64,000 nucleotides of DNA, from positions 76,710 through 140,709 of the forward strand of contig CBDBMW010000009.1 of the NCBI GenBank assembly GCA_965207595.1, written 5' to 3'. Both the position numbers and the translations under genes were made by a program. The notes beneath the pieces were generated by a model. That model saw nothing but the letters and a program-made list of their open reading frames with translations. It had not been told where the DNA came from and searched no databases. How positions within the stretch are numbered: position 1 is the first letter of the stretch; each line of letters begins with the position of its first letter. Source of the DNA: Vicinamibacterales bacterium. Lineage in GTDB: Bacteria; Acidobacteriota; Vicinamibacteria; Vicinamibacterales; UBA8438. Below are positions 873 to 23,503 of the stretch, in pieces.

Positions 873-1352
873 ATGACGGTCGCGCTGGCCGTGCTTGCCA
901 TCGTGCTCGTGATCGTGGGGACCGCCGGCACGGTCCTGCCCGGGCTGCCCGGCGTGCCGCTGGTCCTGGCCGGCCTCGTCGGTCTCGCATGGCTCGACGA
1001 CTTCGCGCGTATCGGACCGTGGACGGTGGCCGTGCTCGTCGCGCTCACCGCGGCCAGCTACGTCGCCGAACTCGGGGCCGCGTTCGGTGCGAGGCGGGTC
1101 GGCGCCAGCCGCTGGGCGATCGTCGGTGCCCTGGTCGGCACCCTTTTCGGCCTCTTCCTCGGCCTGCCGGGACTCCTCATCGGCCCTTTCGCCGGAGCCG
1201 TCGCCGGCGAGTGGCTGGCCCGGCGCAACGTGTCGCAAGCCGCGCGGGCGGGGGCCGGCGCGGGCATCGGACTCGTGGTGGGCACGATCGTCAAGCTCGC
1301 CCTGGTCCTGGCGATGATTGCGATCTCCGCCGGGGCGTTCCTCCTCGGCTGA
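873..1352 (+). CDS. DUF456-like integral membrane protein
   Basis: ATG at 873 inside ORF 216..1352. The peptide has four hydrophobic Gly/Ala/Leu-rich helices (LPGLPGVPLVLAGL..., GPFAGAVAGEW) typical of DUF456. The upstream part of the ORF is Arg/Pro-rich noise. Confidence 0.7.
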   Translation: MTVALAVLAIVLVIVGTAGTVLPGLPGVPLVLAGLVGLAWLDDFARIGPWTVAVLVALTAASYVAELGAAFGARRVGASRWAIVGALVGTLFGLFLGLPGLLIGPFAGAVAGEWLARRNVSQAARAGAGAGIGLVVGTIVKLALVLAMIAISAGAFLLG

Positions 1353-1363
1353 ATCCCTCCCTC

Positions 1364-1393
1364 TTGACCGACCAAGTTGGTCGGGTTTAGTAT
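1364..1393 (+). promoter_or_regulatory. Putative sigma70-type promoter (-35 TTGACC 1364..1369, 18-nt spacer, -10 TAGTAT 1388..1393)
   Basis: Read directly from the sequence in an unusually AT-richer patch, about 85 nt upstream of the ATG at 1478. An operator-like palindrome follows immediately. Confidence 0.35.
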
Positions 1394-1400
1394 CCACGCG

Positions 1401-1419
1401 ACTGAGACTCAGTCTCAGT
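1401..1419. promoter_or_regulatory. Perfect 9-1-9 palindrome ACTGAGACT-C-AGTCTCAGT containing TGAGA-N5-TCTCA; Fur-box-like operator (site 1 of 4)
   Basis: Palindrome verified base by base. It has the same 7-1-7 geometry as the Fur core TGATAAT-N-ATTATCA and matches it at 10 of 14 positions. It lies between the putative -10 and the gene start. Confidence 0.5.
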
Positions 1420-1477
1420 ATCAAGGCACAGCCTCGCGCGCCCGCCGGATCGCGTGTGCGCCAGGCAAGGAGCAGTC

Positions 1478-3697
1478 ATGAGCCCAGCACGGCCCGCGCG
1501 GATCCGTCCCCTTCTCGTTCTCCTCGCCGGACTGGCGATCTCCGAACCGCTGGCGGGACAACCGGCTCCCGAACCCTGGCAGCCACCAGACCTGATCGAC
1601 GCGGTCGCGAGCCTCGGCGCCGCCGTTCACGACGGCTCGCTCTACGTCTACGGAGGCCACGTCGGCCGCGTCCACGCGCACTCGATCGAGAACATCAGCC
1701 CCGGCTTTCGGAGCGTCGCCCTGCGCCCCGACCAGGAGTGGCAGGAGCTGGCCCGCGGACCGCGACTGCAGGGAGCGGTGCTCGTCTCGGACGGAACCAC
1801 CCTGTATCGCGTCGGCGGCATGACCGCGACCAACGCAACCGCCGCCGAGCCCGAAGTGCTTCGCTCGAGTCGCTCCGCGGCCCGCTACGACGCGGCGGCG
1901 GATCGCTGGGACCCACTGCCCGACCTTCCGGCTGGACGCTCGTCGCACGACGCCGTCGTGCTCGACGGCGTGCTCTACGTGGTAGGGGGCTGGGAGCTTC
2001 GCGGCCCCGACGAGGACGCGGTGTGGGCGGACACGCTCCTGGCCCTCGATCTCGAGCGAGGCACGGAGTGGCGACAAATCCCGGCACCCTTCCTGCGGCG
2101 AGCACTGGCGGCCGGGGCGGCCGGGGGGCGCGTATACGCGTTCGGCGGCCTGACGCGGCAGCAGGGTCCCGTCCTCGCGGTCGACGTCTTGGACACGACG
2201 ACCGGCGAGTGGTCCGCCGGTCCCGCGCTACCGCCGGCCGGCAGCCTGCAGGGATTCGGTATCGGCGCCGCCAGCCACCGCGGAGGCGTCTTCGTCAGTC
2301 AAGCCGACGGCAAGGTGTACGGCCTGCGCGGCGACGGCGAGGGCTGGATCCTCACCGCGACCCTGCCCCACCCGCGCTTCATGCACCGGCTGGCCCCGTT
2401 CGGCGATCACCTCCTCGCCGTCGGCGGCGCCGCGCGCGGGGGACACCTCGCAGTGATCGACGTCGTCCCGGTGGGGCCCGACGCGGAGACCTCGTCCGAC
2501 GACGACGCCGCAGATGCGGGCCGCGATCGGGGCACCACCCGCTGGACCGGCTTCCTGGGCGGCACGCTCGGCAACGTGAGCCGTGCGGCGCGACTGCCGC
2601 TCACGTGGTCGGATTCGGAGACGGCGTGGCGGGTGACCACGGCCGGGTTCGGCCAGTCGAGCCCCGTGATCTGGGACGACACGGTCTTCGTCACCTCGCT
2701 CGAGGGCCGGCTCAAGGAGACGCTGCACATCACGGCCCTGGAGCTCGACAGCGGGGCCGAGCGCTGGCGCCGCACGTTCGACGCGGCGGAGCGGCTCGAA
2801 TGGAACGATTACGTCTCCAAGGGAGCCCCGACGCCGGCCGTCGACCGCGAGCACCTGTACGCCTTCTTCGACAGCGGCGATCTGATGGCCCTCACGCACC
2901 AGGGCGACGTCGCCTGGCATCGGGACCTGAGCGCGGAGTTCGGCACGGTCGGAGGGAACCACGGCGTCGGCAACTCCCTGCTCCTGACGGACCGCGCCGT
3001 CGTCGTGCTCCTGACGCGACGGACGTACTCCTACCTGCTGGCCGTCGACCCGGCAACGGGACGCACGCTCTGGAAGACGGATCGCGATCCCGGGGTGGCG
3101 TGGAGCACGCCCGTGCTGGCCCCGGACGGCGGCGAGATCGTGGTCAGTGCTTCCGGCCGCGTCGAGGGTTTCGATCCCGCGACCGGCGCCCGGATCTGGT
3201 CCTTCGACGGCCTGCGCGGCAACCACGTCCCGTCCCCCACCGTGACGGACGATCTCGTCATCGTCGGCGGCATGGCGGTGGCTGCGAATCTCGCCCTGCG
3301 GCGCGGACGCGCCGGCGCTCTCGACGCCGGTGACGTCGCCTGGAAGGTGGAATCCGCCTCCAGCTTCGGGTCTCCCTTCCTCTACCGGGACTGCGTCTAC
3401 TGGGTGAATCCGGCCGGCGCGGCCCGTTGCGTCGCCCCGGACTCCGGCGACGTCCACTGGACGCACCGGCTTCCCGCGTCCACGTGGGCGACGCCCCTCG
3501 GCCACGGGGACCGCGTCTACTTCTTCACGGATAGGGGGGTCACCGAGGTGTTGCGGGCGTCGGCCGCAGCGCCGGAGTCGCTCGCCACGAACCATCTGTC
3601 GGTCGATGCCCCGGTTACGGGGTTCGCTGTGGTCGACGACGCCATCGTCATCCGGGCCGGCCGCGAAGTGATTCGGGTCGGACGTCCGAAGCGCTGA
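1478..3697 (+). CDS. Secreted fusion protein: N-terminal Kelch-type beta-propeller plus C-terminal PQQ-like (BamB-like) beta-propeller
   Basis: AAGGAG lies 6 nt before the ATG at 1478. Signal-peptide-like start MSPARPARIRPLLVLLAGLAISEP. Kelch-like repeats (LYVYGG, LYRVGG, LYVVGG, VYAFGG) are followed by PQQ-like repeats (ETAWRV..., GRTLWKT, GARIWSF, GDVHWTH). Confidence 0.8.
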   Translation: MSPARPARIRPLLVLLAGLAISEPLAGQPAPEPWQPPDLIDAVASLGAAVHDGSLYVYGGHVGRVHAHSIENISPGFRSVALRPDQEWQELARGPRLQGAVLVSDGTTLYRVGGMTATNATAAEPEVLRSSRSAARYDAAADRWDPLPDLPAGRSSHDAVVLDGVLYVVGGWELRGPDEDAVWADTLLALDLERGTEWRQIPAPFLRRALAAGAAGGRVYAFGGLTRQQGPVLAVDVLDTTTGEWSAGPALPPAGSLQGFGIGAASHRGGVFVSQADGKVYGLRGDGEGWILTATLPHPRFMHRLAPFGDHLLAVGGAARGGHLAVIDVVPVGPDAETSSDDDAADAGRDRGTTRWTGFLGGTLGNVSRAARLPLTWSDSETAWRVTTAGFGQSSPVIWDDTVFVTSLEGRLKETLHITALELDSGAERWRRTFDAAERLEWNDYVSKGAPTPAVDREHLYAFFDSGDLMALTHQGDVAWHRDLSAEFGTVGGNHGVGNSLLLTDRAVVVLLTRRTYSYLLAVDPATGRTLWKTDRDPGVAWSTPVLAPDGGEIVVSASGRVEGFDPATGARIWSFDGLRGNHVPSPTVTDDLVIVGGMAVAANLALRRGRAGALDAGDVAWKVESASSFGSPFLYRDCVYWVNPAGAARCVAPDSGDVHWTHRLPASTWATPLGHGDRVYFFTDRGVTEVLRASAAAPESLATNHLSVDAPVTGFAVVDDAIVIRAGREVIRVGRPKR

Positions 3698-3823
3698 CGA
3701 CCGTCTCCGCACACCGGCTGCGGGCAGGGCGCCAACCAACGGTCCGACGCGTCGGCGGCGACGGGACCGCCGAGATCGACGGGGACCGCATCCCGATGCT
3801 CGCGGCCTGAGTTGGAGGGCAGC

Positions 3824-3988
3824 GTGAGAGAAACCACGCGCACCGTCGTCGCCGCGTCGGCGGTCGTGTTGGGCATCCACGTCGGAGCCATCGTTCTCGG
3901 CGGCGAGACCGCCCTGCCCGGCTGGCTGGTTGGGGCTCAGGCCGGCGCCGTGCTCGCCTGGGCCACGAAGCAGCCGAGGAGCCAATGA
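3824..3988 (+). CDS. Possible small two-helix membrane protein (54 aa, GTG start)
   Basis: GGAGGG lies 4 nt upstream of the GTG at 3824. Translation VRETTRTVVAASAVVLGIHVGAIVLGG...GAVLAWATKQPRSQ has high GC3. Its stop TGA 3986..3988 overlaps the next ATG (3985) as ATGA. It is below the ORF-track length cut-off. Confidence 0.3.
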   Translation: MRETTRTVVAASAVVLGIHVGAIVLGGETALPGWLVGAQAGAVLAWATKQPRSQ

Positions 3989-4292
3989 TGGCCATCAAGG
4001 CGCCCCCTGCACCGCGCTGCACAGGCACGCTGCGCGACCGAAGAGGGCCCCGCAGGCTGCACCGGTGGGAGCCCGAGTCGAGGGGAGGCAGCTACCTGGA
4101 CCCGCGACGCGAGCGGTGCCGGGCGTGCGGCGTAGTGCGCGTGTTCTCCGCCGACTGGCGGCGCATCCTGTACTACGAGGAGCCGGCGAGCTGACCATCG
4201 CAGGACGTCGGGCCGTTCTCGCCGGTGGGACCGGCACTCCTGAGTCTGGCGGCTGGGAACGTCCCAATGCAAAGGAAGGACAGGGTCCGCAC

Positions 4293-4676
4293 ATGGGCAC
4301 ACCCTCATTCATCGCGATGAACCGGTTCAAGGTCGTGCGGGGTTCGGAAGACGCATTCGAGGCGCTCTGGCGATCGCGCGAGAGCCACCTCCATGAGGTG
4401 CCGGGATTCGTTTCGTTCCGCTTGCTGCGATCTCCCGCGGGTGAGGAGTACACGCTGTTCGCGTCACACACGATCTGGAGGTCCCAGGAGGCCTTCGTGG
4501 CATGGACCCAGTCGGAGCAGTTCCGCAAGGCCCACGCGCACGCCAATGACCGCGGCACCCAGGCCGCCTATCTCGGCCATCCCGAATTCGAGGGCTTCCA
4601 CGTCGTGCACCAGCTCGACGCCGACCGACCGGTCGCCGCGCCGGCCGCGGTCGCGTCGGCGGCGGGAGTGACGTGA
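4293..4676 (+). CDS. IsdG/HmoB-type heme-degrading monooxygenase (ABM domain)
   Basis: ATG at 4293 within ORF 3930..4676. The peptide carries an Asn-Trp-His triad pattern (AMNRF, HTIWRSQEAF, FRKAH). The gene sits directly before hmuTUV. Confidence 0.7.
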   Translation: MGTPSFIAMNRFKVVRGSEDAFEALWRSRESHLHEVPGFVSFRLLRSPAGEEYTLFASHTIWRSQEAFVAWTQSEQFRKAHAHANDRGTQAAYLGHPEFEGFHVVHQLDADRPVAAPAAVASAAGVT

Positions 4677-5569
4677 TGCGGCGCGGCGCGCGACGGTCGA
4701 TGGGTGGGACCGCGCGATTGGGACACGCCGGGTTGGCCCTCCTCGCCGTCCTCGGCGCGCACTGCCGCGGCGGCGAGCAGCGGGACGACGGGATCATCGC
4801 GATCGGCGGCGACATCACCGAGATCGTCTACGAGCTCGGCGCGGGCGACCGCCTGATGGCCGTCGACACGACGAGCGTGTACCCGCCGGAGGCTCTCGAG
4901 ACGAAGCCGAACGTGGGGTACATGCGCCAGCTCTCCCCCGAGGGTGTGCTCTCGGTCGGAGGCCGGCACGTGCTCGCCAGCGAGGCGGCCGGACCTCCGG
5001 AGACGATCGCGGCGCTCCAGGCATCGTCCCTGGACTACGTGGTCATCCCGGACGATCCGAGCCCGGAGGGCATCGTGGCGAAGGTGCGGGCCGTCGCCGC
5101 GGCCCTCGGCGAGCAGGCCAAGGGAGAGGAGCTCGCGGCGCGGGTCGCGTCCCGGCTCGAGGACCTGGCGGAGAAGCGAACCCGCATCGAAGGCCCCCCG
5201 GTGCGCGTGCTGTTCGTGCTCGCCGTCCGCAACGGGCGCGCCATCGTCGGCGGCGAGGGCTCGAGCGCCGAGGCGGTTATCGAACTCGCGGGCGGCGTCA
5301 ACGCGGTGACCGGCGTGGTCGACTACCGGCCGCTCGGCGACGAGGCGCTCGTGGCGCTGGCCCCCGACGCCATCCTGACCATGAGCCGCACCAGCGAGCG
5401 GCACACCCTCGAGGAACTCGACACCCTCGCCGGCATCAAGAGCACGCCGGCCATGCGCAACGGCCGCATGTACCAGATGGACGGTCAGCGCCTGCTCGGA
5501 TTCGGTTCACGGACGCCGGACGCGGCGGCCGAATTGATGGACCTGCTCTACGGTCCGATCTCCAAATGA
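4676..5569 (+). CDS. hmuT: Heme/hemin ABC transporter periplasmic substrate-binding protein
   Basis: ORF 4673..5569. The GTGATG start overlaps the previous stop. The layout is that of a class III periplasmic binding protein (IIAIGGDITEIVYELG..., LSPEGVLS, APDAILT). Confidence 0.85.
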   Translation: MRRGARRSMGGTARLGHAGLALLAVLGAHCRGGEQRDDGIIAIGGDITEIVYELGAGDRLMAVDTTSVYPPEALETKPNVGYMRQLSPEGVLSVGGRHVLASEAAGPPETIAALQASSLDYVVIPDDPSPEGIVAKVRAVAAALGEQAKGEELAARVASRLEDLAEKRTRIEGPPVRVLFVLAVRNGRAIVGGEGSSAEAVIELAGGVNAVTGVVDYRPLGDEALVALAPDAILTMSRTSERHTLEELDTLAGIKSTPAMRNGRMYQMDGQRLLGFGSRTPDAAAELMDLLYGPISK

Positions 5570-6657
5570 GTCCGGCTGCGCCGGGAGCCTTGGCGGGGAC
5601 ACTGCCGGCGCCGCACGCGACGGCGCGGCGAGCGTCGGCCACCGTGCTGCTGGTGGTGTCGCCGTGCGTCCTGGCGGGCACCATGATCGCGTCGCTGGCG
5701 GTCGGGCCGACGGGCATCTCCCTCGACGCGCTGCCTGCCGTGCTGTGGGCGATGGCGGGGGGCACGGTCGACGCGGAGATCGCAACCGAGCGACTGGTCC
5801 TGCTCGACCTGCGGCTGCCGCGCACGCTGATCGGGCTCTTCGTCGGTGCGTCGCTCGCCCTGGCGGGAGCGATGATGCAGGGGATGTTCCGCAACCCGCT
5901 CGCCGACCCCGGCCTCATCGGGGTCTCCGCGGGGGCAGCCCTCGCCGCCATCTCCACCATCGCGCTGGGCGACACGGTGCTCGCGTTCTGGCCGGCGACC
6001 CTGGGGGTGCACGCGTTGCCCGTGGCCGCCTTCCTGGGCGGGCTGGCGACCACGCTGCTCCTCGTCCTCGTGGCCAACCGCTCCGGCGGCCTCCCGATCG
6101 GCACGCTGCTTCTGGCCGGGATCGCGTTCGGGGCCCTCGCCAACGCCGGGTCCGGCCTCATCGCCTACGTGAGCAACGATCGCGAGCTGCGCGACCTGAC
6201 GCTCTGGTCCCTCGGCTCGCTGAGCGGCGCGAACTGGGACAAGGTGACCGCCATCGTCCCCTTCGCGCTCCTGCTAGCCGTGTTCACACCCGCGATGGTC
6301 CGGGCGCTCAACGGCCTCGTGCTCGGCGAAGCCGAGGCCTTCCACCTCGGAGTCAGCGTCGAGCGAGCCAAGCGCATCCTGGTGACGCTGACGGCGGCGG
6401 CGGTCGGCGCGGCGGTGGCCGTGGCCGGCGTGATCGGGTTCGTCGGCATCGTCGTGCCGCACTTCGCGCGCTTGATCACCGGCCCCGATCACCGCTTCGT
6501 CCTTCCGGCCTCCGCGCTCTTCGGCGGAGTCATCGTACTGACCGCCGACGTCATCGCGCGCCTCATCGTGCAGCCGGCCGAGCTGCCGATCGGCATCGTG
6601 ATGGCCGCCATCGGCGCGCCGGTGTTCCTGCATCTGGTAATCCGGCGCGGGATCTGA
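5566..6657 (+). CDS. hmuU: Heme ABC transporter permease (FecCD family)
   Basis: ATGA overlap with hmuT. Typical FecCD peptide (LLDLRLPRTLIGLFVGASLALAGAMMQG...GIVMAAIGAPVFLHL). Confidence 0.9.
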   Translation: MSPAAPGALAGTLPAPHATARRASATVLLVVSPCVLAGTMIASLAVGPTGISLDALPAVLWAMAGGTVDAEIATERLVLLDLRLPRTLIGLFVGASLALAGAMMQGMFRNPLADPGLIGVSAGAALAAISTIALGDTVLAFWPATLGVHALPVAAFLGGLATTLLLVLVANRSGGLPIGTLLLAGIAFGALANAGSGLIAYVSNDRELRDLTLWSLGSLSGANWDKVTAIVPFALLLAVFTPAMVRALNGLVLGEAEAFHLGVSVERAKRILVTLTAAAVGAAVAVAGVIGFVGIVVPHFARLITGPDHRFVLPASALFGGVIVLTADVIARLIVQPAELPIGIVMAAIGAPVFLHLVIRRGI

Positions 6658-6675
6658 CCTCCGGGGCCGGACCGC

Positions 6676-7536
6676 ATGCTGCAAACCCGCTCGCTCAGCT
6701 ACGCGGTCGGCGGCCGGGCGCTCGTCGAGAAGGCCTCTCTCGACGTCAGACCCGGTTCCCTCACCGTCGTCATCGGACCGAACGGCGCCGGCAAGACCAC
6801 GCTGGTGCGCATGCTCTCCGGCGAGCTGCGGCCGACGGCAGGCCGCCTGACGTTGGACGGCCGACCGTTGCGGGCGTTCTCCGCCAGGGAACTGGCCCTC
6901 CGCCGCGCAGTCGTCCCGCAGGCGGCGCAACTGACCTTCCCGTTCACGGTCGAGGAAGTCGTGCTGCTCGGCCGGACGGTCCCCGGCCTCGACGATCCCG
7001 GGCCCGCCCGCGCCCTCTGCCGCACCGCGCTCGAGCGCGTCGGCTTGCTCGATCTCGCCGGCCGGAGCTACACCGCCCTCTCCGGCGGGGAGCGCCAGCG
7101 CGTGCACCTGGCCCGGGCCTTCGCCCAGCTGGGCGACTGGCGCCGCGACGACGGCACGACCCTCCTGTTCCTGGACGAGCCGACGTCCAACCTCGACCTT
7201 GCCCACCAGCTCTCGATCCTGCGGGAGGTCCGGAAGGACGTCGCGGAGGGTCTTGCCGTCGTGGCCGTGCTGCACGACCTCAATCTCGCATCGTGCTTCG
7301 CCGATCGAATCATCCTGATGAGCGCCGGCCGGATCGCCCGGGTCGGCCCACCCCCCGAGATCTTCCGTGATGAGGTGCTGTCGACGGTCTTCGGCTGCGT
7401 GGTGCGGGCCAATGTCACCCCTGCTCCGGACGTGCCGTTCGTGCTGCCGCAGGCATGCGGGGAAACCGGACGCCGCGGCACCCCGACTCCGGCGCCGCGG
7501 CGTCCGGCTTCGTCAGGCGCTACCCCGAACACCTGA
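6676..7536 (+). CDS. hmuV: Heme ABC transporter ATP-binding protein
   Basis: Walker A GPNGAGKTT, signature LSGGERQR and Walker B LLFLDEPTS. Confidence 0.9.
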   Translation: MLQTRSLSYAVGGRALVEKASLDVRPGSLTVVIGPNGAGKTTLVRMLSGELRPTAGRLTLDGRPLRAFSARELALRRAVVPQAAQLTFPFTVEEVVLLGRTVPGLDDPGPARALCRTALERVGLLDLAGRSYTALSGGERQRVHLARAFAQLGDWRRDDGTTLLFLDEPTSNLDLAHQLSILREVRKDVAEGLAVVAVLHDLNLASCFADRIILMSAGRIARVGPPPEIFRDEVLSTVFGCVVRANVTPAPDVPFVLPQACGETGRRGTPTPAPRRPASSGATPNT

Positions 7537-7596
7537 CGGCCACGCCCTTTGCGCTTGATCGACGGGCGCGGTCTGGGTCACAATGCGCGCTGATAC

Positions 7597-7611
7597 TGAG
7601 ACGCATTCTCA
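7597..7611. promoter_or_regulatory. TGAGA-CGCAT-TCTCA inverted repeat, Fur-box-like operator (site 2 of 4)
   Basis: Coordinates verified against ORF 7455. The wider context GATACTGAGACGCATTCTC matches 13 of 19 positions of the classical Fur box GATAATGATAATCATTATC. It lies 76-90 nt upstream of the CbiX-like gene. Confidence 0.45.
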
Positions 7612-7686
7612 AGACATGTCGGGGGGACCGGTCGGGTGCACACGCCCACGGGCTCCCACGCAGCGGCGCTCCCGTGAACGAGAGAG

Positions 7687-8601
7687 GTGAGGAAGACAGT
7701 GGCGATACGAGCTTGGACGCGGTTGCTGCCTGCCCTGTTGCTCGTGCTGCTGGCGCCCGGCGTCGCCGGGGCCCAGGGCATCCTCCTGCTCGCTCACGGC
7801 GGCCGTGCCGACTGGAATCAGGAAGTCCTGGGCCTGGCGGATCGTGTCTCCTCGAGCGTGCCTGTCGAGGTGGCGTTCGGCATGGCGAACAAGCGGACCA
7901 TCCAGGAAGCACTGGGCCGGCTGGCGGAACACGACGTCACGAGCATCGTCGCGGTTCCGCTGTTCATCTCGTCGCACAGCAGCGTGATGCGGGCCACGGA
8001 GTACCTGCTGGGGAGCCGCGATGAAGCGCCGCCGCAGATGGAAGCCTTTGCCCGCATGGCCGCCCGGCGCGAGTCGGAGGGCGACGCGGCCAGCGACACC
8101 GGCTTCGACTGGACCTCGCCACTGGAGCCGGGAGTACCGATCTCGGTGGGACGGGCCCTCGACGGCCACCCTCTCGTCGCCGCGATCCTGATCTCCCGCG
8201 CCCTGGATGTCAGCGAGGCCCCCGAAGACGAGGTCGTCGTGGTGGTGGCGCACGGACCGAGCTCGGAAGCGGACAACGAGCTCTGGCTGGGACACATGGC
8301 TGTCCTGGTCGACGAAATGCGCAGCCGTACGGGCTTCAGCCGCATCGAGCACCTGACGGTCCGGGACGACGCGTCGGAACCGGTCCGCGAGCAGGCCACC
8401 GAGGAGTTGCGCGCCGTGGTCGGGGCCGCCATCGATGAGGGGAGCTCGGTGGTCATCGTACCGTTGCTCCTGTCCTACGGCGGCATCGAAGTCGGCATCC
8501 GGCGGAGGCTCGAGGGCTTGTCGTACCGCATGGCCCGTCAGGCCCTGCTGCCGGACGAGCGGCTGGCCGAGTGGGTGCTGATGCAGGTGGCCGCGCGGTA
8601 G
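7687..8601 (+). CDS. Secreted two-domain CbiX/SirB-like class II chelatase-fold protein
   Basis: Signal peptide LLPALLLVLLAPGVAGAQG. Two CbiX-like halves start at ILLLAHGGRADWN and VVVVVAHGPSSEADN, with VAVPLFIS and IVPLLLSYG strands. An alternative GTG start at 7699 has a better AGGAAG spacer. Confidence 0.7.
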   Translation: MRKTVAIRAWTRLLPALLLVLLAPGVAGAQGILLLAHGGRADWNQEVLGLADRVSSSVPVEVAFGMANKRTIQEALGRLAEHDVTSIVAVPLFISSHSSVMRATEYLLGSRDEAPPQMEAFARMAARRESEGDAASDTGFDWTSPLEPGVPISVGRALDGHPLVAAILISRALDVSEAPEDEVVVVVAHGPSSEADNELWLGHMAVLVDEMRSRTGFSRIEHLTVRDDASEPVREQATEELRAVVGAAIDEGSSVVIVPLLLSYGGIEVGIRRRLEGLSYRMARQALLPDERLAEWVLMQVAAR

Positions 8602-8764: not shown

Positions 8765-11116
8765 ATGCAGTTCCCACCCTGCACCGCCGCGGGCCGCCAC
8801 GCGGCTTCGGCGGCGGTCGTAGCCTTCGCGGCGCTGGGTCTCGCCCTGTCGGCCCCGGCCGCGCTGGCGCAGCCGGCCGAGCCGGCCCAAACGGCGGCTG
8901 GCGCCCAGGCGGCAACCGACCCGGTATCCCCCGGCGGCCAGGCAACCGGCGGTCCGGACGACCCTCTCACCTTTCTCGACTCCGTGACGGTGACCGCCAC
9001 CCTGCGGCCGGCGCCGGTCCGTGATACCCCCGGGATGGTGTCGGTGATCGACGACGTGGCCATCGAGGAACGGCTCGTGCAGAACATGGCCGATCTCGTC
9101 AAGTACGAGCCCGGCGTCTACGTCGAGAACAACGTGACCCGCCTCGGCCTCAACGGGTTCAACATCCGCGGCATCGGCGGCAACCGGGTGATGACCCAGG
9201 TAGACGGCGTCCAGACCTCCGAGCAATTCGACTTCGGGCCCTTCAACGTCCATCAGGTCTCGCTCGACGTCGACACGCTGAAGTCGGTCGAGATCGTCCG
9301 CAGCGCGAACTCGGCCCTCTACGGCAGCGACGCCCTGGGCGGCGTCGTGTCGCTCTTCACGAAGGACCCCGGCGACTACCTCCGGGGACGGCGCTTCCAC
9401 GCCGGCGCCAAGACGACGTGGGACGGGCGCGCCGATGGGTTGAGCGGCAACCTCTCGCTCGCCGCCGGCACCGAGCGCTTCCAGGCGTCGCTGTTCGCCA
9501 GCGCCACCCGGGGCAACGAAATCCGCAACAAGGGGACGGTGGAGACGGCCGACGACACCCGGACGGCGCCCAATCCCCAGGACCTCGTCGGCTCGCAGAT
9601 GCTGGCCAAGATCGTCTTCAACGCCTCGCCCGGCAACATGCTGCGGGCTTCCGCGGAGGTCTACGACACCCGCGTCGAGACGGCGGTCCTGTCGCAGCAG
9701 GGATCCTTGCAGTTCAGCCCGACGTTCGGCATCGACACGACGGACTACGACGCGGTCGACACCCAGGATCGGCTGCGGCTGTCGATCGACCAGACGCTCG
9801 TCGACCGCGGCGGCTTCGACCAGCTCTCGTGGCGCATCTACGGCCAACGGAACGACACCTCGCAGGTCGTCGACGATGCCCGCACGACGTTCGGCTTCGG
9901 GCCGCCGATGGGGTCGCTGCGCCATGGCACCGTCGACTTCGACCAGGCCGGGTACGGCACCTCGGCGCAGGGTCAGAAGTGGCTCGGCGACCCGGACGGC
10001 GGCGTCCTGTTCAGCTTCGGCGCCGCCTACAAGACGGATCACTTCGACGTCCTGCGGGATGCGCGCGAGGTCAACGCTCGCTCCGGCGCCGTGATCCCGT
10101 CCCGGCTGATCTATCCCACGAAGTACTTCCCGGAGAGCGACGTCGCCGAGGCCGGAGCGTATCTGCAGGGCGAGATCCAGCTCGGTCGTCTCACGCTGGT
10201 GCCGGGCGTGCGCTACGACCACTTCACCCTCGACGCCGACCAGGCTGACTCCGTCTTCCTGGCGAGCCTCAACCCGGTGCCCGCCGACTTCTCGGCGGAC
10301 GCCGTCTCGCCGAAGTTCGGCATCGCGGCGCGCCTGAACGACGTCGTCACCGTGCACGCGCAGTATGCGGGCGGCTTCCGGGCGCCGCCCTACAGCAACA
10401 TCAACACCGGCTTCACGAACTTCCGCGGCGGCTACACGACGCTGCCGAATGCGGCGCTGCGCGCGGAGACGAGCGACAACGTCGAGGTCGGCATCCGCTC
10501 CGCGTTCGCCCGCGCCAGCTTCGACCTGACGACGTTCCTCAACTACTACGACGATTTTATCGAGCTGACCAGCCTCGGCTTCAATCCCCGAACGAGGCTG
10601 CTCGAGTTCCAGAGCCAGAACCTCGAGCAGGCGGAGATCAGGGGGGTCGAGATGCGCGGCGAGGCCTACCTCAGCGACAGCGTGACCCTGCGCGGGAGCT
10701 ACGCCCACATCCGCGGCGTCGCCATCACGAAGGACGTCACGGTGCCGCCGCTGGCGCAGGAAACGCCGCTCGGATCCGTCGCCCCGAACGAGGGCGTCCT
10801 CGGTCTCCGCTACGTCCGGCCCTCCGGCCGCTGGGGCGGCGAGGTCTCCGTCCGCATGGTCGAGTCGTACCAGCAGGTCGCAATAGACGGGGTCGACGAC
10901 GATCAGTTCTCGCCGGACGGGTACGCGATCGTCGACCTCATCGGGTTCGCCTCGCTCATGGAGGACCTGACGTTCCGGCTCGGCCTGCTGAACCTGACCG
11001 ACGCCAAGTACTTCGAGTGGTGGAACGTGCGGGGACGGCCGGCGGACGACCCGGTCATCGACCGCTACTCGAGCCCGGGAATCAGCCTGGTCGCCTCACT
11101 GGGGTACGACTGGTAG
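8765..11116 (+). CDS. TonB-dependent heme/hemoglobin-type outer-membrane receptor (copy 1)
   Basis: Signal peptide, then a plug (DSVTVTATLRPAPVRDTPGMVSVID...). FRAP box and NPNL-like box (GFRAPPYS...LPNAALRAE). C-terminal SLGYDW. GAGGAG lies before the ATG. Confidence 0.9.
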   Translation: MQFPPCTAAGRHAASAAVVAFAALGLALSAPAALAQPAEPAQTAAGAQAATDPVSPGGQATGGPDDPLTFLDSVTVTATLRPAPVRDTPGMVSVIDDVAIEERLVQNMADLVKYEPGVYVENNVTRLGLNGFNIRGIGGNRVMTQVDGVQTSEQFDFGPFNVHQVSLDVDTLKSVEIVRSANSALYGSDALGGVVSLFTKDPGDYLRGRRFHAGAKTTWDGRADGLSGNLSLAAGTERFQASLFASATRGNEIRNKGTVETADDTRTAPNPQDLVGSQMLAKIVFNASPGNMLRASAEVYDTRVETAVLSQQGSLQFSPTFGIDTTDYDAVDTQDRLRLSIDQTLVDRGGFDQLSWRIYGQRNDTSQVVDDARTTFGFGPPMGSLRHGTVDFDQAGYGTSAQGQKWLGDPDGGVLFSFGAAYKTDHFDVLRDAREVNARSGAVIPSRLIYPTKYFPESDVAEAGAYLQGEIQLGRLTLVPGVRYDHFTLDADQADSVFLASLNPVPADFSADAVSPKFGIAARLNDVVTVHAQYAGGFRAPPYSNINTGFTNFRGGYTTLPNAALRAETSDNVEVGIRSAFARASFDLTTFLNYYDDFIELTSLGFNPRTRLLEFQSQNLEQAEIRGVEMRGEAYLSDSVTLRGSYAHIRGVAITKDVTVPPLAQETPLGSVAPNEGVLGLRYVRPSGRWGGEVSVRMVESYQQVAIDGVDDDQFSPDGYAIVDLIGFASLMEDLTFRLGLLNLTDAKYFEWWNVRGRPADDPVIDRYSSPGISLVASLGYDW

Positions 11117-11193: not shown

Positions 11194-13644
11194 ATGCACC
11201 TCGCCGCCCGCCCGCACGCGCCGCACCGTGCCCGGCGCCGTTCCGGCCTTTGCCTGGTCCGCCTCGCAGCGGTCGCGGTCTCCCTGACCATCCCGCTGCC
11301 TGACGGAGCCCCAGGAGTCTGGGCCGCAGAACCGGCGACGCGCGACGCTCGCGCCCGCGCAGACTCCCACCGCGCCCGTCAGGGCGCGCGGGCGCAGGAC
11401 CGGACCGGCACGGAGACCGACGACGCCCGACCGGCCGATGCTCCCCCCGTCGCGCCGACGCCGGACGCTCCGCCACCGGATGACGCCGTCTCGACCACCG
11501 ATCCGCTGACGTTTCTCGATTCCGTGACCGTCACCGCGACGCTTCGCCCAGCCCCCGTGCGGGAGACGCCGGGCGTGGTCTCGGTCATCGACGAGGAGGC
11601 GATCCAGGAACGACTGATCCAGAACGCGGCCGACCTCGTGAAGTACGAGCCGGGCGTCTACGTCGAGAGCAACGTCACCCGGCTGGGCCTCAACGGCTTC
11701 AACATCCGCGGAATCGGCGGGAATCGCGTCCTCACCCGCATCGACGGCGTCGAGACGTCGGAGCAGTTCGACTTCGGGCCCTTCAACGTCCACCAGGTGT
11801 CGTTCGATGTCGATGCCCTGAAGTCGGTCGAGATCGTGCGCAGCGCGAATTCCGCCCTCTACGGCAGCGACGCGCTCGGCGGCGTCGTCTCGCTGTTCAC
11901 GAAGGATCCCGCGGACTACCTCCGCGGCCGGCGCTTCCATGCCGGGGCCAAGACCACGTGGGACGGCCGCGCGGACACCCTGAGCGGCAACGCGGCCCTG
12001 GCCGGGGGCGGGGAGCGGCTGCAGGCATCGCTCTTCGCCAGCACCTCCCGCGGAGGGGAGATTCGGAACCAGGGGACCGTCCACACGCAGGACGCCACCC
12101 GCACGGCGCCCAACCCGCAGCAGCTCGCCGCCTCCCAGGCGCTGGCCAAGGTCGTGTTCACCGCCGCCCCCGGCAACGTGCTGCGGGCGGCGGCGGAGGT
12201 CTACGACACGCGCGTCGAGACCGAGGTCCTCTCCCAGCAGGGCCTCGTCGAGTTCGGGCCCGCGATCGGCATCGACACCAAGGACGTCGACGCAGTCGAC
12301 ACCCAGGACCGCCTCCGGCTCTCGCTCGATCACACGCTCGCGGGGCGCGTCGGGCTCGATCTGCTCACCTGGCGCGTCCACCGCCAGCGCAGCGACACCG
12401 CGCAGGTGGTCGACGACCGCCGCTCGATCCGCGGCTTCGGGTCGCCGGTCGAGGCGGCACGGCACGGCACGGTCGACTTCGACCAGGCGGGCGCCGGCGG
12501 CTCGGTGCAGGCGCAGAGGCGGCTCGGGGACGCCGACGGCGGCATGCTGCTCACGTTCGGGGCCAGCTACAAGACCGACCACTTCGACGTCCTGCGCGAC
12601 GCCGTCGAGATCGACGTCGCCACCGGAGCCGAGATCCCGCCGCGGCAGACCTACCCGACCAAGTACTTCCCCGAGAGCGACGTGGTCGAGGCGGGATCCT
12701 ACGTCCAGGGCGAGATCCAGCTCGGCCGGCTCACGCTCGTGCCGGGGGTGCGCTACGACCGGTTCACGCTCGACGCCGACCAGGACGACCCGATCTTCCT
12801 GGCGAGCTTCAACCCGGAGCCGGCGGACTTCGCCGCGCACGCCGTATCCCCGAAGGTGGGCGCCGCCGCGCGCCTGACGGACGTCGTCACCGTGCACGCC
12901 CGCTACGCGGCGGGGTTCCGCGCGCCGCCGTACAGCACCGTCAACACCGGCTTCACGAGCTTCAGCGCCGGCTACACGACACTGCCGAACCCGAGCCTGC
13001 GGGCCGAGAAGAGCGACAACCTGGAGGTCGGCGTCCGCACCGCCTTCGCGCGGGCGAGCCTCGACGTCACCGCGTTCGTCAACCGCTACGACGACTTCAT
13101 CGAGCTGGCCAGCGTCGGCATCAATTCCGCGACCCGGCTGCTCGAGTTCCAGAGCCGCAACGTGGAGCGGGCGGAGATTGCGGGCCTCGAGGTGCGCGGC
13201 GAGGCCTACCTGACCGGAACCCTGATGCTGCGCGGCAGCTATGCGCGGATCGACGGGGTGTCGCTCTCGACCACCGCCTCCGGCTCGCCCTTCGGCGAGG
13301 CGCCGCTCGGCTCCATCGCCCCGAGCGAGGGCCAGGTCGGCATCCGCTACGTCCATCCCCGCGGCCGCTGGGGAGGGGAGCTCTCCGCGCGGCTGGTGGA
13401 GGGCTACGGCCAGTCGGATGCCGGCGACAACCAGTTCGCGCCCGACGCCTACCAGGTCGTCGACCTCGTGGGCTTCGCATCGCTCCGCGACGCGCTCACC
13501 CTGCGTCTGGGGCTGCTCAATCTGACGGACGCAAGGTACTTCGAGTGGTGGAACGTGCGGGGACGCCTTCCCGGCGACCCGGCCATCGACCGCTACTCCA
13601 GCCCGGGGACGAGCGCCGTCGCGTCCCTGGCGTACGACTGGTAG
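11194..13644 (+). CDS. TonB-dependent heme/hemoglobin-type outer-membrane receptor (copy 2, tandem paralogue)
   Basis: Long identical runs with copy 1 (DPLTFLDSVTVTATLRPAPVR, LGLNGFNIRGIGGNRV, SANSALYGSDALGGVVSLFTKDP). FRAP and LPNPSL boxes. C-terminal SLAYDW. Confidence 0.9.
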   Translation: MHLAARPHAPHRARRRSGLCLVRLAAVAVSLTIPLPDGAPGVWAAEPATRDARARADSHRARQGARAQDRTGTETDDARPADAPPVAPTPDAPPPDDAVSTTDPLTFLDSVTVTATLRPAPVRETPGVVSVIDEEAIQERLIQNAADLVKYEPGVYVESNVTRLGLNGFNIRGIGGNRVLTRIDGVETSEQFDFGPFNVHQVSFDVDALKSVEIVRSANSALYGSDALGGVVSLFTKDPADYLRGRRFHAGAKTTWDGRADTLSGNAALAGGGERLQASLFASTSRGGEIRNQGTVHTQDATRTAPNPQQLAASQALAKVVFTAAPGNVLRAAAEVYDTRVETEVLSQQGLVEFGPAIGIDTKDVDAVDTQDRLRLSLDHTLAGRVGLDLLTWRVHRQRSDTAQVVDDRRSIRGFGSPVEAARHGTVDFDQAGAGGSVQAQRRLGDADGGMLLTFGASYKTDHFDVLRDAVEIDVATGAEIPPRQTYPTKYFPESDVVEAGSYVQGEIQLGRLTLVPGVRYDRFTLDADQDDPIFLASFNPEPADFAAHAVSPKVGAAARLTDVVTVHARYAAGFRAPPYSTVNTGFTSFSAGYTTLPNPSLRAEKSDNLEVGVRTAFARASLDVTAFVNRYDDFIELASVGINSATRLLEFQSRNVERAEIAGLEVRGEAYLTGTLMLRGSYARIDGVSLSTTASGSPFGEAPLGSIAPSEGQVGIRYVHPRGRWGGELSARLVEGYGQSDAGDNQFAPDAYQVVDLVGFASLRDALTLRLGLLNLTDARYFEWWNVRGRLPGDPAIDRYSSPGTSAVASLAYDW

Positions 13645-20003: not shown

Positions 20004-22529
20004 CTAGAGGCGGAAGCGCACCTCGAGCAGCACCGTCCGCCGCAGGATGTCGCCGAAGATGTGCTGCTTGATGTGCCGGTTCAGCAGGTTCGTCCCCTTC
20101 AGGACCGTCGTGATGGCCCCGTCCTGCCAGCGCATCCCGACGCTCCCGTTCACCATCGTGTAGCCGCTGGAGTAGCCGTGGTACTCGCGCGTCAGGACAT
20201 CGCTCCAGAACGCGTCGGTCGCCGCACTGACCGAGGCGCTCGCGATGTAGCGGGGTCCGTTCCAGGAGATGCCCGCGTTTCCGCGATGCGTCGGGGGCAG
20301 CGTGAGCTCCTCCGGGAGGTAGGGATTGTCGGACTCCAGGATCTCCGGCTCCCCCTGCCACGAGTAGTTGATCCAGGCCGAGGCCGAACGCGAGAAGCGC
20401 TGGTCCCACCACAGCTCGGCGCCGACCTGGCGGGTAGGTCCGAGATTGAAGTACGTGAACGCCGTCCGCGGCAGAAAGATGCCGAACTGGGCCATCTGCT
20501 GCAGCAGGAGGCCCGGCACCTGGGCCGCCAGCGGCGCCGGGAGCTGGTCCGCGCCGAGGTAGGCGGCCCACCCGGGCGGCAGGTTCTGCGGCGTGTAGGG
20601 GTCGACGTCGGACGCCACCGGGACGAAGTTGATCGGATCGTCCCGCCGGTTGAGGTAGGCCGCCGCTCCGATCGTCCCTCCCGGCCACAACGTCCCGGTG
20701 TAGCTCACCTCGTACGCCGTGAGCGACTCCTCCTGGAGTGGACGGCGCTCCGTCTCCCCGATCGGACGGTCGCTGCCCGCGGCCCGGACCACGAGCGGGA
20801 ACGGCTGCGCCAGGCGCGGGCCGATGACCGGGCGGAGCGCCGCCGGCACGAAGGGCGCCAGGGCGCTCAGGTCCACCGGGTTGAGGATGTTCATCTCCAG
20901 GAAGTTGTTGATGATCGAGGGGCCCCGGAAGGCCCGGTTGTAGGAGAAGGTCAGCGACTGGTCGGGGCTCGGCTTGATGATGAACGCGAGCCGCGGCGAG
21001 AAGGTGGGAGTGGCGAGGTTGCCGAACTTGTCGACCCGACCGCCGAGCACGAAGCGGAACGGGTCGAGGAAGATCTCGTCCTGCAGGTAGGCCCCCGCCT
21101 CCAGGCGGTCCTCCGCCAGGGGCGCGATGGTGATGTCGAAGCTGTTCTGGCGGACGTTCCCGCCGTAGGTCAGCAGGTGCCGGTCGCCGAGGAACGTGGA
21201 ATGGCCCATCTCGGCGTCGAACGTGTCGGTGCGGAAGCCAAGCTGCACCGGCTGCCCCGTGGCCGGGTCGGGCAGCAGCAGGTTCGGCGCGTCCCCCCGC
21301 AGGAAGTTCGCGAAGACCTGAGCGTGGAAATCCCCCCGCGTGTAGTTCACCCTGCCATAGCCGAGGTAGGAGCCGGGCTGGATGTCGAACGGCCCGACCC
21401 CCGAGTGCACGATGCCCTCGGTGCCCGCCACCCCGGCCGCGTAGGTCAGGCGCCCGTTCGTCAGCTCCTGATCGACGCGCACGTCGAACTTGGGCTGGCT
21501 CGTGCCGCGGTTGGCGAACGCGGCCGCCCCGAACGCGCCCGGCGCGTCCGTGGGATAGTACGCGCCCCCGACCAGCCGCCCGGGCTCGCGGGGGTCGAAG
21601 ACCACGGGGATGCGGCCGGTCGGACGCGGGAACGCGTCCGACGTGAAATAGCCGGCGCTGACGCGATACGCAAGCCGGTCCGTCGGCGCCCGCGTGACCG
21701 TCGCGTTGGCCCCGAAGAGCGTCCCCGGGCTCCGCCCCGCGGTCGACCCCGCGTCCCGATCGATCACTCCGCCGGTGAAGGTCACCGTCGTGCCCACCGA
21801 CTCCCGCGGCGACTTGGTGAGGATGTTGACGGCGCCGGTCATGGCGTTGGCGCCCCACGTCGCGGAGGCCGGGCCGCGCACCACCTCTATCTGCTCGATG
21901 TCGTCCGTGTTGGCGGGGAGGAGATCCCACAGCACCAGCCCGAAGAAGTCGAGATAGACGCTCCGTCCGTCCATCAGGACCAGCTGCGAGTTGGCCACCG
22001 CCCCCGTCGCCTGGCGGCTGGTCACGTTGACGTCGCGCGCCGAGAGCTGGACCACGTTGACGCCGGGCACGGTGCGCAGCACGTCCCCGTAATTGGTGGC
22101 CGGCGACGCCTCCAGCGTGTCGGACGAGATGACCGACGTCGTGACCGGCGCGTCGACCAGCCGGACCTCGCTGCGCGAGGCGGTCACGACCACCGTGTCC
22201 CCGAAGCTCGCGATCCCCAGCGTGATGCGCCCGAGGTCGACGGGGTCATCCGCTACGACCACCTCCTGCGTCCCGGGCGAGAAGCCGGACAACTCGGCCG
22301 TCAGCGTGTACGTCCCTGCCGGCAACCCGTCGAGGATGAACGCCCCGGCTCCGTCCGTCTGCACGACGCGCGCCAGACCGGGACCGGTCAGCGTCACCGT
22401 GGCCCCGGGGAGAGCCCCCCCGGTCTCGTCGACGACGTCACCGGCGACGCGGCCGGATTGCGCCGCCGCGAGCGGCGCCGAACCCAGGAAGGCCAGAAGG
22501 ACGATTCCCGCCAAGCCTCGCGCCATCAT
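20004..22529 (-). CDS. TonB-dependent receptor with N-terminal carboxypeptidase-regulatory-like domain
   Basis: GGAGGGAACC precedes ATG 22529. Signal peptide, then GRVAGDVVDETGGALPGATVTLTGPG (CarboxypepD_reg), then a plug and a 22-strand-type barrel ending in ...LEVRFRL. Confidence 0.9.
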   Translation of the reverse strand: MMARGLAGIVLLAFLGSAPLAAAQSGRVAGDVVDETGGALPGATVTLTGPGLARVVQTDGAGAFILDGLPAGTYTLTAELSGFSPGTQEVVVADDPVDLGRITLGIASFGDTVVVTASRSEVRLVDAPVTTSVISSDTLEASPATNYGDVLRTVPGVNVVQLSARDVNVTSRQATGAVANSQLVLMDGRSVYLDFFGLVLWDLLPANTDDIEQIEVVRGPASATWGANAMTGAVNILTKSPRESVGTTVTFTGGVIDRDAGSTAGRSPGTLFGANATVTRAPTDRLAYRVSAGYFTSDAFPRPTGRIPVVFDPREPGRLVGGAYYPTDAPGAFGAAAFANRGTSQPKFDVRVDQELTNGRLTYAAGVAGTEGIVHSGVGPFDIQPGSYLGYGRVNYTRGDFHAQVFANFLRGDAPNLLLPDPATGQPVQLGFRTDTFDAEMGHSTFLGDRHLLTYGGNVRQNSFDITIAPLAEDRLEAGAYLQDEIFLDPFRFVLGGRVDKFGNLATPTFSPRLAFIIKPSPDQSLTFSYNRAFRGPSIINNFLEMNILNPVDLSALAPFVPAALRPVIGPRLAQPFPLVVRAAGSDRPIGETERRPLQEESLTAYEVSYTGTLWPGGTIGAAAYLNRRDDPINFVPVASDVDPYTPQNLPPGWAAYLGADQLPAPLAAQVPGLLLQQMAQFGIFLPRTAFTYFNLGPTRQVGAELWWDQRFSRSASAWINYSWQGEPEILESDNPYLPEELTLPPTHRGNAGISWNGPRYIASASVSAATDAFWSDVLTREYHGYSSGYTMVNGSVGMRWQDGAITTVLKGTNLLNRHIKQHIFGDILRRTVLLEVRFRL

Positions 22530-22674
22530 GGTTCCCTCCTGCTCGCCGATGCCCGAATCTCCAGAATAGCAGGAGACGTCGCGCATCCGGCCCGCTTCCC
22601 GCCCCGCCCGGGGCGGGCGCCTTGCGACGAGCGACGGTGGCGGTTCCGGGTGCGGTTGGACGGAGACCACGGGA

Positions 22675-22689
22675 TGAGATTGCGTCTCA
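22675..22689. promoter_or_regulatory. TGAGA-TTGCG-TCTCA inverted repeat, Fur-box-like operator (site 3 of 4)
   Basis: Lies in the divergent intergenic region, 26 nt upstream of the bfd ATG and 146 nt upstream of the receptor start. Coordinates verified against the 22715 ATG. Confidence 0.45.
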
Positions 22690-22714: not shown

Positions 22715-22963
22715 ATGCCGTTGGCGATGCCTGCCGAGAGCGTGCGGCCGACCGCCGGAGCGACCGGCTTCGTCTGCACCTGCCTGCGGATCACGGAGCG
22801 CGAGTTGCTCGGAACGCTGTCGCATCCGGGCATCCGCACGCTCCGCGACCTCCGGCGCTCCATCGGCGCCGGCGACGGCTGCACGGCCTGCCACCCGGTG
22901 CTGCAGCGCTACCTCGACGCGCGCGCTCAGCCGTCGTGCCCGCCCATCTGCTCCGCCAGGTAG
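22715..22963 (+). CDS. bfd: Bacterioferritin-associated ferredoxin, BFD-like [2Fe-2S] protein
   Basis: Cys pattern FVCTCLRITE...GDGCTACHP. The gene is adjacent and convergent to bfr. Confidence 0.8.
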   Translation: MPLAMPAESVRPTAGATGFVCTCLRITERELLGTLSHPGIRTLRDLRRSIGAGDGCTACHPVLQRYLDARAQPSCPPICSAR

Positions 22964-23406
22964 TTCTGGATGCCGACCTTCTCGATGCGGAAGAGCTGCG
23001 TCTCCAGCCAGTCGACGTGCTCTTCGGACTCGACCAGGATGGGGGCCACGAGCTCGCGTGTGCCGTTATCGCCCAGCCTTACGCTCAACTCGACCAGCGC
23101 GTTGTAGTCCGCGACGCCCTTCATCTCGAGCTTCAGGTCGTTCTCGAACTGCTCCCGCACGTCCGTGCCGACCCGGATGACGTCGTAGCGGGCGATCTCG
23201 GGGATTCCCTCCAGGAAGAGGATCCGCTCGATCAGCTTCTCGGCGTGCTTCATCTCGCCGATGGACTCTTCGTGGTGCTTCTTCGCCAGGTCGTGGAATC
23301 CCCAGTCCGCGCACATCTTCGACTGACAGAAGTACTGGTTGATCGCCGTCAGCTCGATGGTCAGGGCGCCGTTCAGCCCCTCGATGATCTCCGTTTGTCC
23401 CTTCAC
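22927..23406 (-). CDS. bfr: Bacterioferritin
   Basis: GTG start preceded by GGAGGAGGAGG. Peptide (M)KGQTEIIEGLNGALTIELTAINQYFCQSKM...EEHVDWLETQL. Confidence 0.95.
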   Translation of the reverse strand: MKGQTEIIEGLNGALTIELTAINQYFCQSKMCADWGFHDLAKKHHEESIGEMKHAEKLIERILFLEGIPEIARYDVIRVGTDVREQFENDLKLEMKGVADYNALVELSVRLGDNGTRELVAPILVESEEHVDWLETQLFRIEKVGIQNYLAEQMGGHDG

Positions 23407-23472
23407 GGCCTCCTCCTCCCTTGTCGCGGCAACGCCGCCATCTCGAACGTACAGCGCGGCCGCCCGGAGAGG

Positions 23473-23487
23473 TGAGACTGCGACTCA
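23473..23487. promoter_or_regulatory. TGAGA-CTGCG-ACTCA, one-mismatch copy of the Fur-box-like operator (site 4 of 4)
   Basis: Lies 67-81 nt upstream of the bfr start. Coordinates verified against ORF 23421. Confidence 0.4.
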
Positions 23488-23503
23488 ATCGCGGGGGTCG
23501 TCT

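Follow-up and report, generated by a model that had tools for sequence, protein, structure and literature searches.

A probable Fur operator in a GC-shifted spelling heads an iron and heme locus of a Vicinamibacterales bacterium

Introduction

Which regulator reads the palindrome that stands between a predicted promoter and a run of heme and iron genes in a Vicinamibacterales bacterium, and how far downstream would its control reach? The question concerns a stretch of 64,000 nt (hereafter, the window) from a member of the Acidobacteriota, a phylum that abounds in soils and in association with sponges and is largely uncultured. In a preliminary description of this DNA, the palindrome at 1401-1419 was taken for a Fur-like operator lying downstream of a promoter and repeated before other iron genes, and the whole of 1478-7536 was proposed to be a single iron-repressed transcription unit.

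The canonical Escherichia coli Fur box is the 19-bp GATAATGATAATCATTATC, which has been reread in Bacillus subtilis as the 7-1-7 inverted repeat TGATAAT-N-ATTATCA. DtxR/IdeR boxes are 19-bp palindromes of 9-1-9 geometry with the consensus TTAGGTTAGGCTAACCTAA, and the IRO box of RirA, from Rhizobiales, is formally TGA-N9-TCA. Here, we weigh the window palindrome against these systems by means of its recurrence, its conservation in related loci and its distribution in metagenomes.

Materials and Methods

The related set comprised 79 loci (1.47 Mb) fetched by homology to the Kelch/PQQ protein encoded next to the palindrome; loci are designated by L numbers. Coding and intergenic matches were compared in the 66 GC-rich loci among these 79 (1.32 Mb, about 83% coding), with genes called by codon usage. 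A position matrix was built from 73 unique sites of the related loci. Metagenome contigs were scanned for the exact 21-mer TGAGACTCAGTCTCARTWTCA, a pattern that positions 1403-1423 of the window fit.

Results

The sequence at 1401-1419, ACTGAGACTCAGTCTCAGT, reads as a perfect 9-1-9 palindrome, just as the preliminary description had it, and is the only one in the 64 kb. Base-composition shuffles of the window contained 1.07 such palindromes on average and 5 at most, so that the palindrome by itself is statistically unremarkable; recurrence, position and conservation, and not the palindrome itself, are what take the feature beyond chance. A direct count confirmed that its core, TGAGACT-C-AGTCTCA, agrees with TGATAAT-N-ATTATCA at 10 of 14 positions. 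The promoter-like sequence noted just upstream, TTGACC-N18-TAGTAT, was also confirmed, being the sole sigma-70-like match in 1200-8000, where 0.1 would be expected. Since the box starts about 7 nt past the predicted -10 hexamer TAGTAT, it would cover the likely transcription start, and site 1 thus has the promoter adjacency of a Fur box, the promoters being predicted. The first gene past site 1 is the Kelch/PQQ gene, with a ribosome-binding-site-like AAGGAG ahead of its ATG.

With up to one mismatch allowed, TGAGA-N5-TCTCA matched the window exactly four times, without mismatch at 1403, 7597 and 22675 and with one mismatch at 23473; shuffles yielded 0.74 matches on average, and one in 100 of them reached four. 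These are the very sites (7597..7611, 22675..22689 and 23473..23487) at which the core had been said to recur. All four are intergenic, and the Pfam and NCBIfam assignments of the genes that follow sites 1-4 make the labels "iron-related" and "heme" correct, in agreement with the earlier claim that every copy precedes iron-related genes. The matrix ranked the same four sites (Table 1) and found nothing else above 6 in the window except their own 6-nt-shifted copies. A weak match at 47131 (score 6.0) falls in a low-GC stretch and was set aside as irrelevant. The segment 46000-48000 has a GC content of 0.61, compared with about 0.71 elsewhere, carries minus-strand genes and may be horizontally acquired.

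Table 1. Positions of the boxes, predicted promoters and neighbouring genes in the window
Feature	Position	Strand	Description
Promoter-like element	1364..1393	+	TTGACC (1364-1369), 18-nt spacer, TAGTAT (1388-1393); precedes Kelch/PQQ gene
Second palindrome	1368..1384	.	CCGACCAA-G-TTGGTCGG; in -35/-10 spacer of Kelch/PQQ promoter
Site 1, Fur-type box	1398..1423	.	Matrix score 36.4, top of window
Site 1, 19-bp palindrome	1401..1419		
Site 1, 15-bp core	1403..1417		TGAGACTCAGTCTCA
Site 1, right flanking hexamer	1418..1423		GTATCA
Kelch/PQQ gene	1478..3697	+	Exported, 739 aa; Pfam Kelch propeller (N-terminal) and PQQ/BamB-like propeller (C-terminal)
hmuQ	4293..4676	+	ABM-fold heme-degrading monooxygenase; NCBIfam HmuQ 150 bits (cut-off 130); Pfam ABM
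hmuT	4673..5569	+	Heme ABC importer; Pfam Peripla_BP_2
hmuU	5566..6657	+	Heme ABC importer; Pfam FecCD
hmuV	6676..7536	+	Heme ABC importer; Pfam ABC_tran
Putative promoter	7555..7584	+	TTGATC, 18 nt, CACAAT; before CbiX-like gene; laid out as Kelch promoter
Site 2, Fur-type box	7591..7611	.	TGATAC-TGAGACGCATTCTCA; matrix score 28.4
CbiX-like gene	7699..8601	+	Exported protein; Pfam CbiX
Receptor gene, first	8765..11116	+	Heme/hemoglobin-type TonB-dependent receptor; Pfam Plug, TonB_dep_Rec
Receptor gene, second	11194..13644	+	Heme/hemoglobin-type TonB-dependent receptor; Pfam Plug, TonB_dep_Rec
Site 3, Fur-type box	22675..22689	.	TGAGATTGCGTCTCA; matrix score 23.7
Site 4, degenerate hexamer array	23468..23492	.	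TGAGAC-TGCGAC-TCAATC; matrix score 21.2

The promoter ahead of the CbiX-like gene is putative only, because it agrees with the consensus at 8 of 12 positions and falls under the scan threshold. Site 3 lies between the divergent genes of a TonB-dependent receptor (20004-22670, minus strand) and bfd (22736-22963, plus strand), and an orthologous box, TGATATTGCGTCTCA, precedes bfd in at least six related loci. Site 4 stands 67-81 nt before bfr (22927-23406, minus strand), with similar arrays at the orthologous position before bfr in nine related loci. The genes bfd and bfr are convergent, and their 3' ends overlap by 37 nt. Counterparts of sites 1, 3 and 4 at orthologous positions occur in several related loci; site 2 has a counterpart in L017 only, and is without an equivalent in the matching spacer of L001 and L006, two loci that are also without hmu genes.

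The heme label of the locus proved sound, since HmuQ, the heme ABC ATPase and the heme-type receptors all score above curated NCBIfam cut-offs: HmuV reached 294 bits against the heme ABC ATP-binding protein model (cut-off 261), and the two receptors 342.6 and 336.0 bits against TIGR01786 (cut-off 323.75). For the Kelch/PQQ protein more than 100 homologues were found, the nearest in the metagenome-assembled genome COS1_bin_16 (96% protein identity); among functionally characterised solved structures, none matched this protein or the CbiX-like protein. An Rfam scan of the window matched no RNA family, and by this null result a cobalamin riboswitch before the BtuCD-like transporter was ruled out at the gathering threshold. 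A 99-nt tRNA-Val (GAC) that ARAGORN calls within the Kelch/PQQ reading frame (1972-2070) is in all likelihood spurious.

In the 66 GC-rich loci, the core pattern gave 91 intergenic and 3 coding matches, and matrix scores of at least 14 were reached at 175 intergenic and 2 coding positions. The box precedes the Kelch/PQQ orthologue in 50 loci and bfr in 9, and was also present before receptor and CbiX-like genes; its copies vary at the central bases and keep the TGAGA/TCTCA arms. Within Vicinamibacterales loci, the Kelch/PQQ gene is the one most consistently preceded by the box, a ranking biased in its favour because the loci were fetched by homology to its protein. Furthermore, Verrucomicrobiota and Planctomycetota loci have the same core ahead of bfd, of Kelch/PQQ and receptor genes and of genes for AraC-type regulators.

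With its flanks, the consensus reads tGAaAy-TGAGAC-T-S-A-GTCTCA-rTtTCa, a 6-nt periodic hexamer array in which 7-1-7 repeats overlap at 6-nt offsets; the inner part, aAy-TGAGAC-T-S-A-GTCTCA-rTt, usually has more TGAnAn/nTnTCA hexamers on either side. The form expected of a Fur box, an inverted repeat TGAnAnT-N-AnTnTCA or an array of NATWAT-like hexamers at 6-nt intervals, was seen in the core (10/14), in the 73-site consensus and in the 6-nt-shifted copies, which also score. As to the regulon, the box recurs before genes of iron acquisition and storage in the window, in the related loci and in metagenomes.

The exact 21-mer was found at 54 metagenome loci with GC contents of 0.40-0.73, and the genes adjoining it code for FeoB, FeoA, FTR1, PepSY_TM, bacterioferritin (bfr), TonB-dependent receptors, ZnuA-like proteins and an ABC ATPase. 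Four loci, L082, L097, L101 and L117, have the box 9 nt ahead of the ATG of a 168-aa Fur gene (PF01475); this fur gene lies behind a promoter TTGACA-N17-TAGACT and is followed by FTR1. Autoregulated Fur proteins usually show themselves by such a box ahead of their gene. In L134, a Fur orthologue with 80% identity keeps the box, which there overlaps the -10 hexamer of fur. Homologues of the box-linked Fur, where named in their sources, belong to Acidobacteria or Thermoanaerobaculia. The recognition helix of the acidobacterial Fur (ATVYRTLELL) is that of the B. subtilis Fur query sequence, and because the two are the same, the G/C preference of the box is left unexplained.

Regulator genes of the lineage itself were sought in several ways. 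Queried by tblastn with Fur of E. coli, DtxR, IscR and PerR of B. subtilis, the window returned no regulator. For the 79 related loci the query set gained B. subtilis Fur and E. coli Zur and lost IscR; no Fur-family gene appeared, the sole find being a DtxR-like gene next to feoB. Among homologues of the acidobacterial Fur, no Vicinamibacterales Fur was recognised; all were at least 78% identical, and the named ones came from Thermoanaerobaculia or unclassified Acidobacteria. A search of cluster representatives gave 150 unannotated sequences, among which no Vicinamibacterales Fur was recognised, and the named relatives of the most GC-biased representative (P0288) were Thermoanaerobaculia or Deltaproteobacteria. 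In L004 (20535-21578), and also in L003, L005 and L032, the gene of a 347-aa DtxR-like protein fused to a FeoA domain lies directly upstream of feoB; the region ahead of it (L004 21579-21640) has the palindrome ATACAA-N4-TTGTAT and no Fur-type box, so that feo may answer to a metal regulator of its own there.

Between the Kelch/PQQ stop and the hmuQ start there is a gap of 596 nt. The preliminary description had found no site ahead of the heme monooxygenase and hmuTUV, which the matrix corroborated, its best score in 3650-4700 being -10.4. The scans of 3698-4292 gave no box, no predicted promoter and no predicted terminator, so that read-through from the Kelch promoter is possible. The gap holds two short ORFs (region 3825-4194), of which 3988-4194 (69 aa, third-position GC 0.87) may be coding; an in-frame start read near 3825 was not borne out, as the translated frame began with a stop. 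Homologues of hmuQ, hmuT and hmuU were found in none of the 79 related loci, and hmuV had generic ABC-ATPase matches only, at about 30% identity. In L001 and L006, whose Kelch/PQQ protein is 96% identical, the CbiX-like gene follows 193 nt after the Kelch gene with no internal box. At 12413-13893 of L001, only 145 aa of the CbiX-like gene and 348 aa of the first receptor gene are left, as if a deletion had fused the two.

At the right end of the hmu block, site 2 and its promoter-like element are laid out like the Kelch promoter, and no convincing direct repeats flank the block. A GC-rich inverted repeat at 7462-7511 (21 nt, 90% complementary, 8-nt loop) lies within the 3' end of hmuV, just ahead of the site 2 promoter, and could be a terminator without a T run.

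The Kelch/PQQ promoter holds a second palindrome in its spacer (Table 1). The -35/spacer/-10 arrangement is kept in about 40 orthologous Kelch/PQQ promoters, as are the palindrome arms, CCGACC-N5-GGTCGG, which lie about 30-45 nt upstream of the box (L001-L056) and change symmetrically, for example to CCGACT..AGTCGG in L056. Intergenic matches to the exact core CGACC-N5-GGTCG in 1.3 Mb all fall in Kelch/PQQ promoters, except one at L049 5233. A terminator scan flagged 1368-1384 only because a weak T run follows; this reading was rejected, because L001 and L006 keep the element and have no gene upstream of it on the same strand.

Discussion

What we observe directly is the motif, where it lies, how it is conserved and which genes its regulon holds, fur of other Acidobacteriota among them. 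On these grounds, we consider that the palindrome at 1401-1419 is a Fur operator covering the likely transcription start, with a probability of about 0.85, and that it is very probably an iron switch of the ordinary sort rather than a novel type of element. Fur as the binding protein, repression as its effect and iron as the signal are what we infer. The earlier proposal of a Fur-like operator downstream of a promoter, repeated before iron genes, is thus well supported by the array form, the conservation, the likeness to a Xanthomonas box and the fur and iron genes of the metagenomes.

Like the canonical Fur box, the present element is a 7-1-7 inverted repeat with invariant TGA...TCA ends, 6-nt periodic flanking hexamers and overlapping sites; it likewise overlaps the promoter or transcription start of iron-uptake genes and occurs before fur itself. 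An overlapping 7-1-7 layout was reportedly described for Fur by Baichoo and Helmann in 2002 (cited in PMC1790865). The two boxes differ at half-site positions 4 and 6, which are G and C here (TGAGACT) and T and A in the canonical box (TGATAAT). It weighs against the Fur reading that 4 of the 14 core positions depart from the canonical box and that the box-carrying fur genes belong to a different class of Acidobacteriota. Neither the window nor the Vicinamibacterales loci yielded a gene of the Fur family, so that the lineage's own regulator is one that we infer.

A closer likeness is found in Xanthomonas campestris, whose receptor genes are Fur-repressed, as established with a fur mutant and its complementation (Blanvillain et al., 2007; PMC1790865). 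The motif AATGAgAATcATTctCATT was found computationally in that study, and its authors propose it as the Fur box of the species (PMC1790865). Site 1 shares 15 of 19 positions with this box, and site 2 has the same right half, ATTCTCA, as the Xanthomonas box. Both elements are 19 bp long with 9-1-9 geometry and TGAGA/TCTCA arms, both come from GC-rich genomes, and the genes that follow them include those of TonB-dependent receptors, bfd and feoA. They differ in phylum and in the inner bases, which are C/G here (GAC-T-S-A-GTC) and A/T in Xanthomonas (GAAT-C-ATTC); moreover, Fur dependence was established by a fur mutant for the Xanthomonas target genes, whereas here it is presumed. A literature search with motif strings and for Fur boxes of Acidobacteria and Verrucomicrobia found only the Xanthomonas paper (PMC1790865). 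From its sequence, the box is very probably a GC-shifted spelling of the Fur box used by Acidobacteria and some other phyla, with the Xanthomonas variant as its nearest relative.

Under the Fur reading, Fe2+-Fur would occupy 1398-1423 when iron is plentiful and block initiation by RNA polymerase from the promoter at 1364-1393, the box covering the likely transcription start and probably the first 20 or so transcribed bases. Because 7-1-7 sites overlap at a distance of 6 nt, two Fur dimers would probably bind on overlapping sites. When iron is scarce, Fur would leave, and the Kelch/PQQ gene, with anything co-transcribed, would be expressed. The same switch would operate at the CbiX-like and heme-receptor genes, at the divergent receptor/bfd pair and, in a degenerate form, at bfr. 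Bacterioferritin is normally made when iron is plentiful, and the bfr box for that reason does not fit simple repression.

It is unlikely, in our estimate, that the box is the operator of another iron-responsive regulator, of the DtxR/IdeR or the Rrf2/RirA type, and merely resembles a Fur box. Such a reading could draw on the lack of a fur gene in the window and the 79 loci of this lineage, and on a 347-aa gene product with Fe_dep_repr_C and FeoA domains, 29% identical to DtxR, whose gene adjoins feoB in L003-L005 and L032. The present box also shares with DtxR/IdeR boxes the 19-bp 9-1-9 geometry, the iron genes and the occurrence in GC-rich bacteria, some relatives having a DtxR-like gene, and with the RirA IRO box the TGA-N9-TCA spacing and the position before iron genes. 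However, its sequence is unrelated to the IdeR/DtxR consensus given above, and a direct comparison with TWAGGTWAGSCTWACCTWA left only the geometry in common. The feo operon that starts with the DtxR-like gene is without the box and has the different palindrome ATACAA-N4-TTGTAT instead, which makes DtxR an unlikely binder. With regard to RirA, no Rrf2 candidate is linked to the motif, whereas fur genes of the same phylum carry it directly ahead of them; to our knowledge, RirA (Rrf2 family) is confined to Alphaproteobacteria. The 6-nt periodic array is, furthermore, characteristic of Fur.

Binding by a Fur-family paralogue with a signal other than iron, for instance Zur, PerR or an Irr-like protein responding to heme, appears very unlikely. 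The box-linked Fur-family protein of L101 does fail to reach the curated cut-offs of all NCBIfam models for Fur, PerR, Irr and Zur, two metagenome matches precede ZnuA-family genes, and several targets in the window are heme-specific. Nevertheless, this box-linked regulator scores highest against Fur models and its gene is co-transcribed with that of the FTR1 iron permease, while the targets form a classic iron regulon (feoAB, FTR1, PepSY_TM, bfd, bfr and receptors of siderophore or heme type), among which neither ribosomal-protein paralogues nor COG0523 or catalase/peroxidase genes were seen.

A palindrome due to chance, or one of structural use only, such as a 5' mRNA stem-loop or terminator to which no regulator binds, is effectively refuted by the comparative data: although base composition alone would give about one perfect 9-1-9 palindrome in 64 kb and a transcribed palindrome could fold at the mRNA 5' end, the motif recurs four times, is intergenic in 91 and coding in 3 of its matches in 1.3 Mb, lies upstream of genes and not after them, is conserved ahead of orthologous and non-orthologous iron genes in three phyla with arms kept while the centre varies, and was neither called by the terminator scan nor matched by Rfam.

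Returning to the Fur operator, the reach of its control may be narrower than first proposed. Because hmu genes are absent from the 79 loci, L001 and L006 included, the hmu block (about 3740-7640, about 3.9 kb) seems to be an insertion peculiar to this lineage that separates the Kelch/PQQ gene from the CbiX-like gene, and for the same reason the box at 1401 would ancestrally belong to the Kelch/PQQ gene and not to hmu. Site 2 and its promoter-like element may restore control of the CbiX-like and receptor genes after the insertion. The single transcription unit of 1478-7536 suggested in the preliminary description is weakened by this comparison of loci.

The spacer palindrome at 1368-1384 may be the operator of a second regulator. 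More tentatively, and with some doubt on our part, the box could mark an undescribed heme/iron-extraction module whose promoter, with its second conserved palindrome, is under dual control. Its members may be the exported Kelch/PQQ propeller protein, the exported CbiX-like protein of chelatase fold and the heme-type TonB-dependent receptor, the CbiX-like protein (class II chelatase fold) possibly acting as a periplasmic heme dechelatase. If this were true, the Kelch/PQQ promoter would answer to Fur and to a second regulator, for example a heme-sensing one. Double-propeller and CbiX-like proteins accompany heme-type receptors and carry Fur-type boxes, and Verrucomicrobiota and Planctomycetota also have propeller homologues with this box; the observation covers 1478-3697 and 7699-8601 of the window, L063 7860-10070 and L074 9278-10924.

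Conclusion

For gene regulation in general, a Fur-type box at this locus is the expected kind of element and would hold no surprise for a specialist. To judge by the sequences compared, Fur recognition would tolerate G/C at the inner positions as long as the TGA-N9-TCA frame is kept. The matrix would flag several uncharacterised genes as iron-regulated, namely those of the Kelch/PQQ double-propeller, the exported CbiX-like and the PepSY_TM proteins. For the Acidobacteriota, the consensus offers a usable Fur box, with which iron regulons would be readable directly from metagenome-assembled genomes by means of the matrix.
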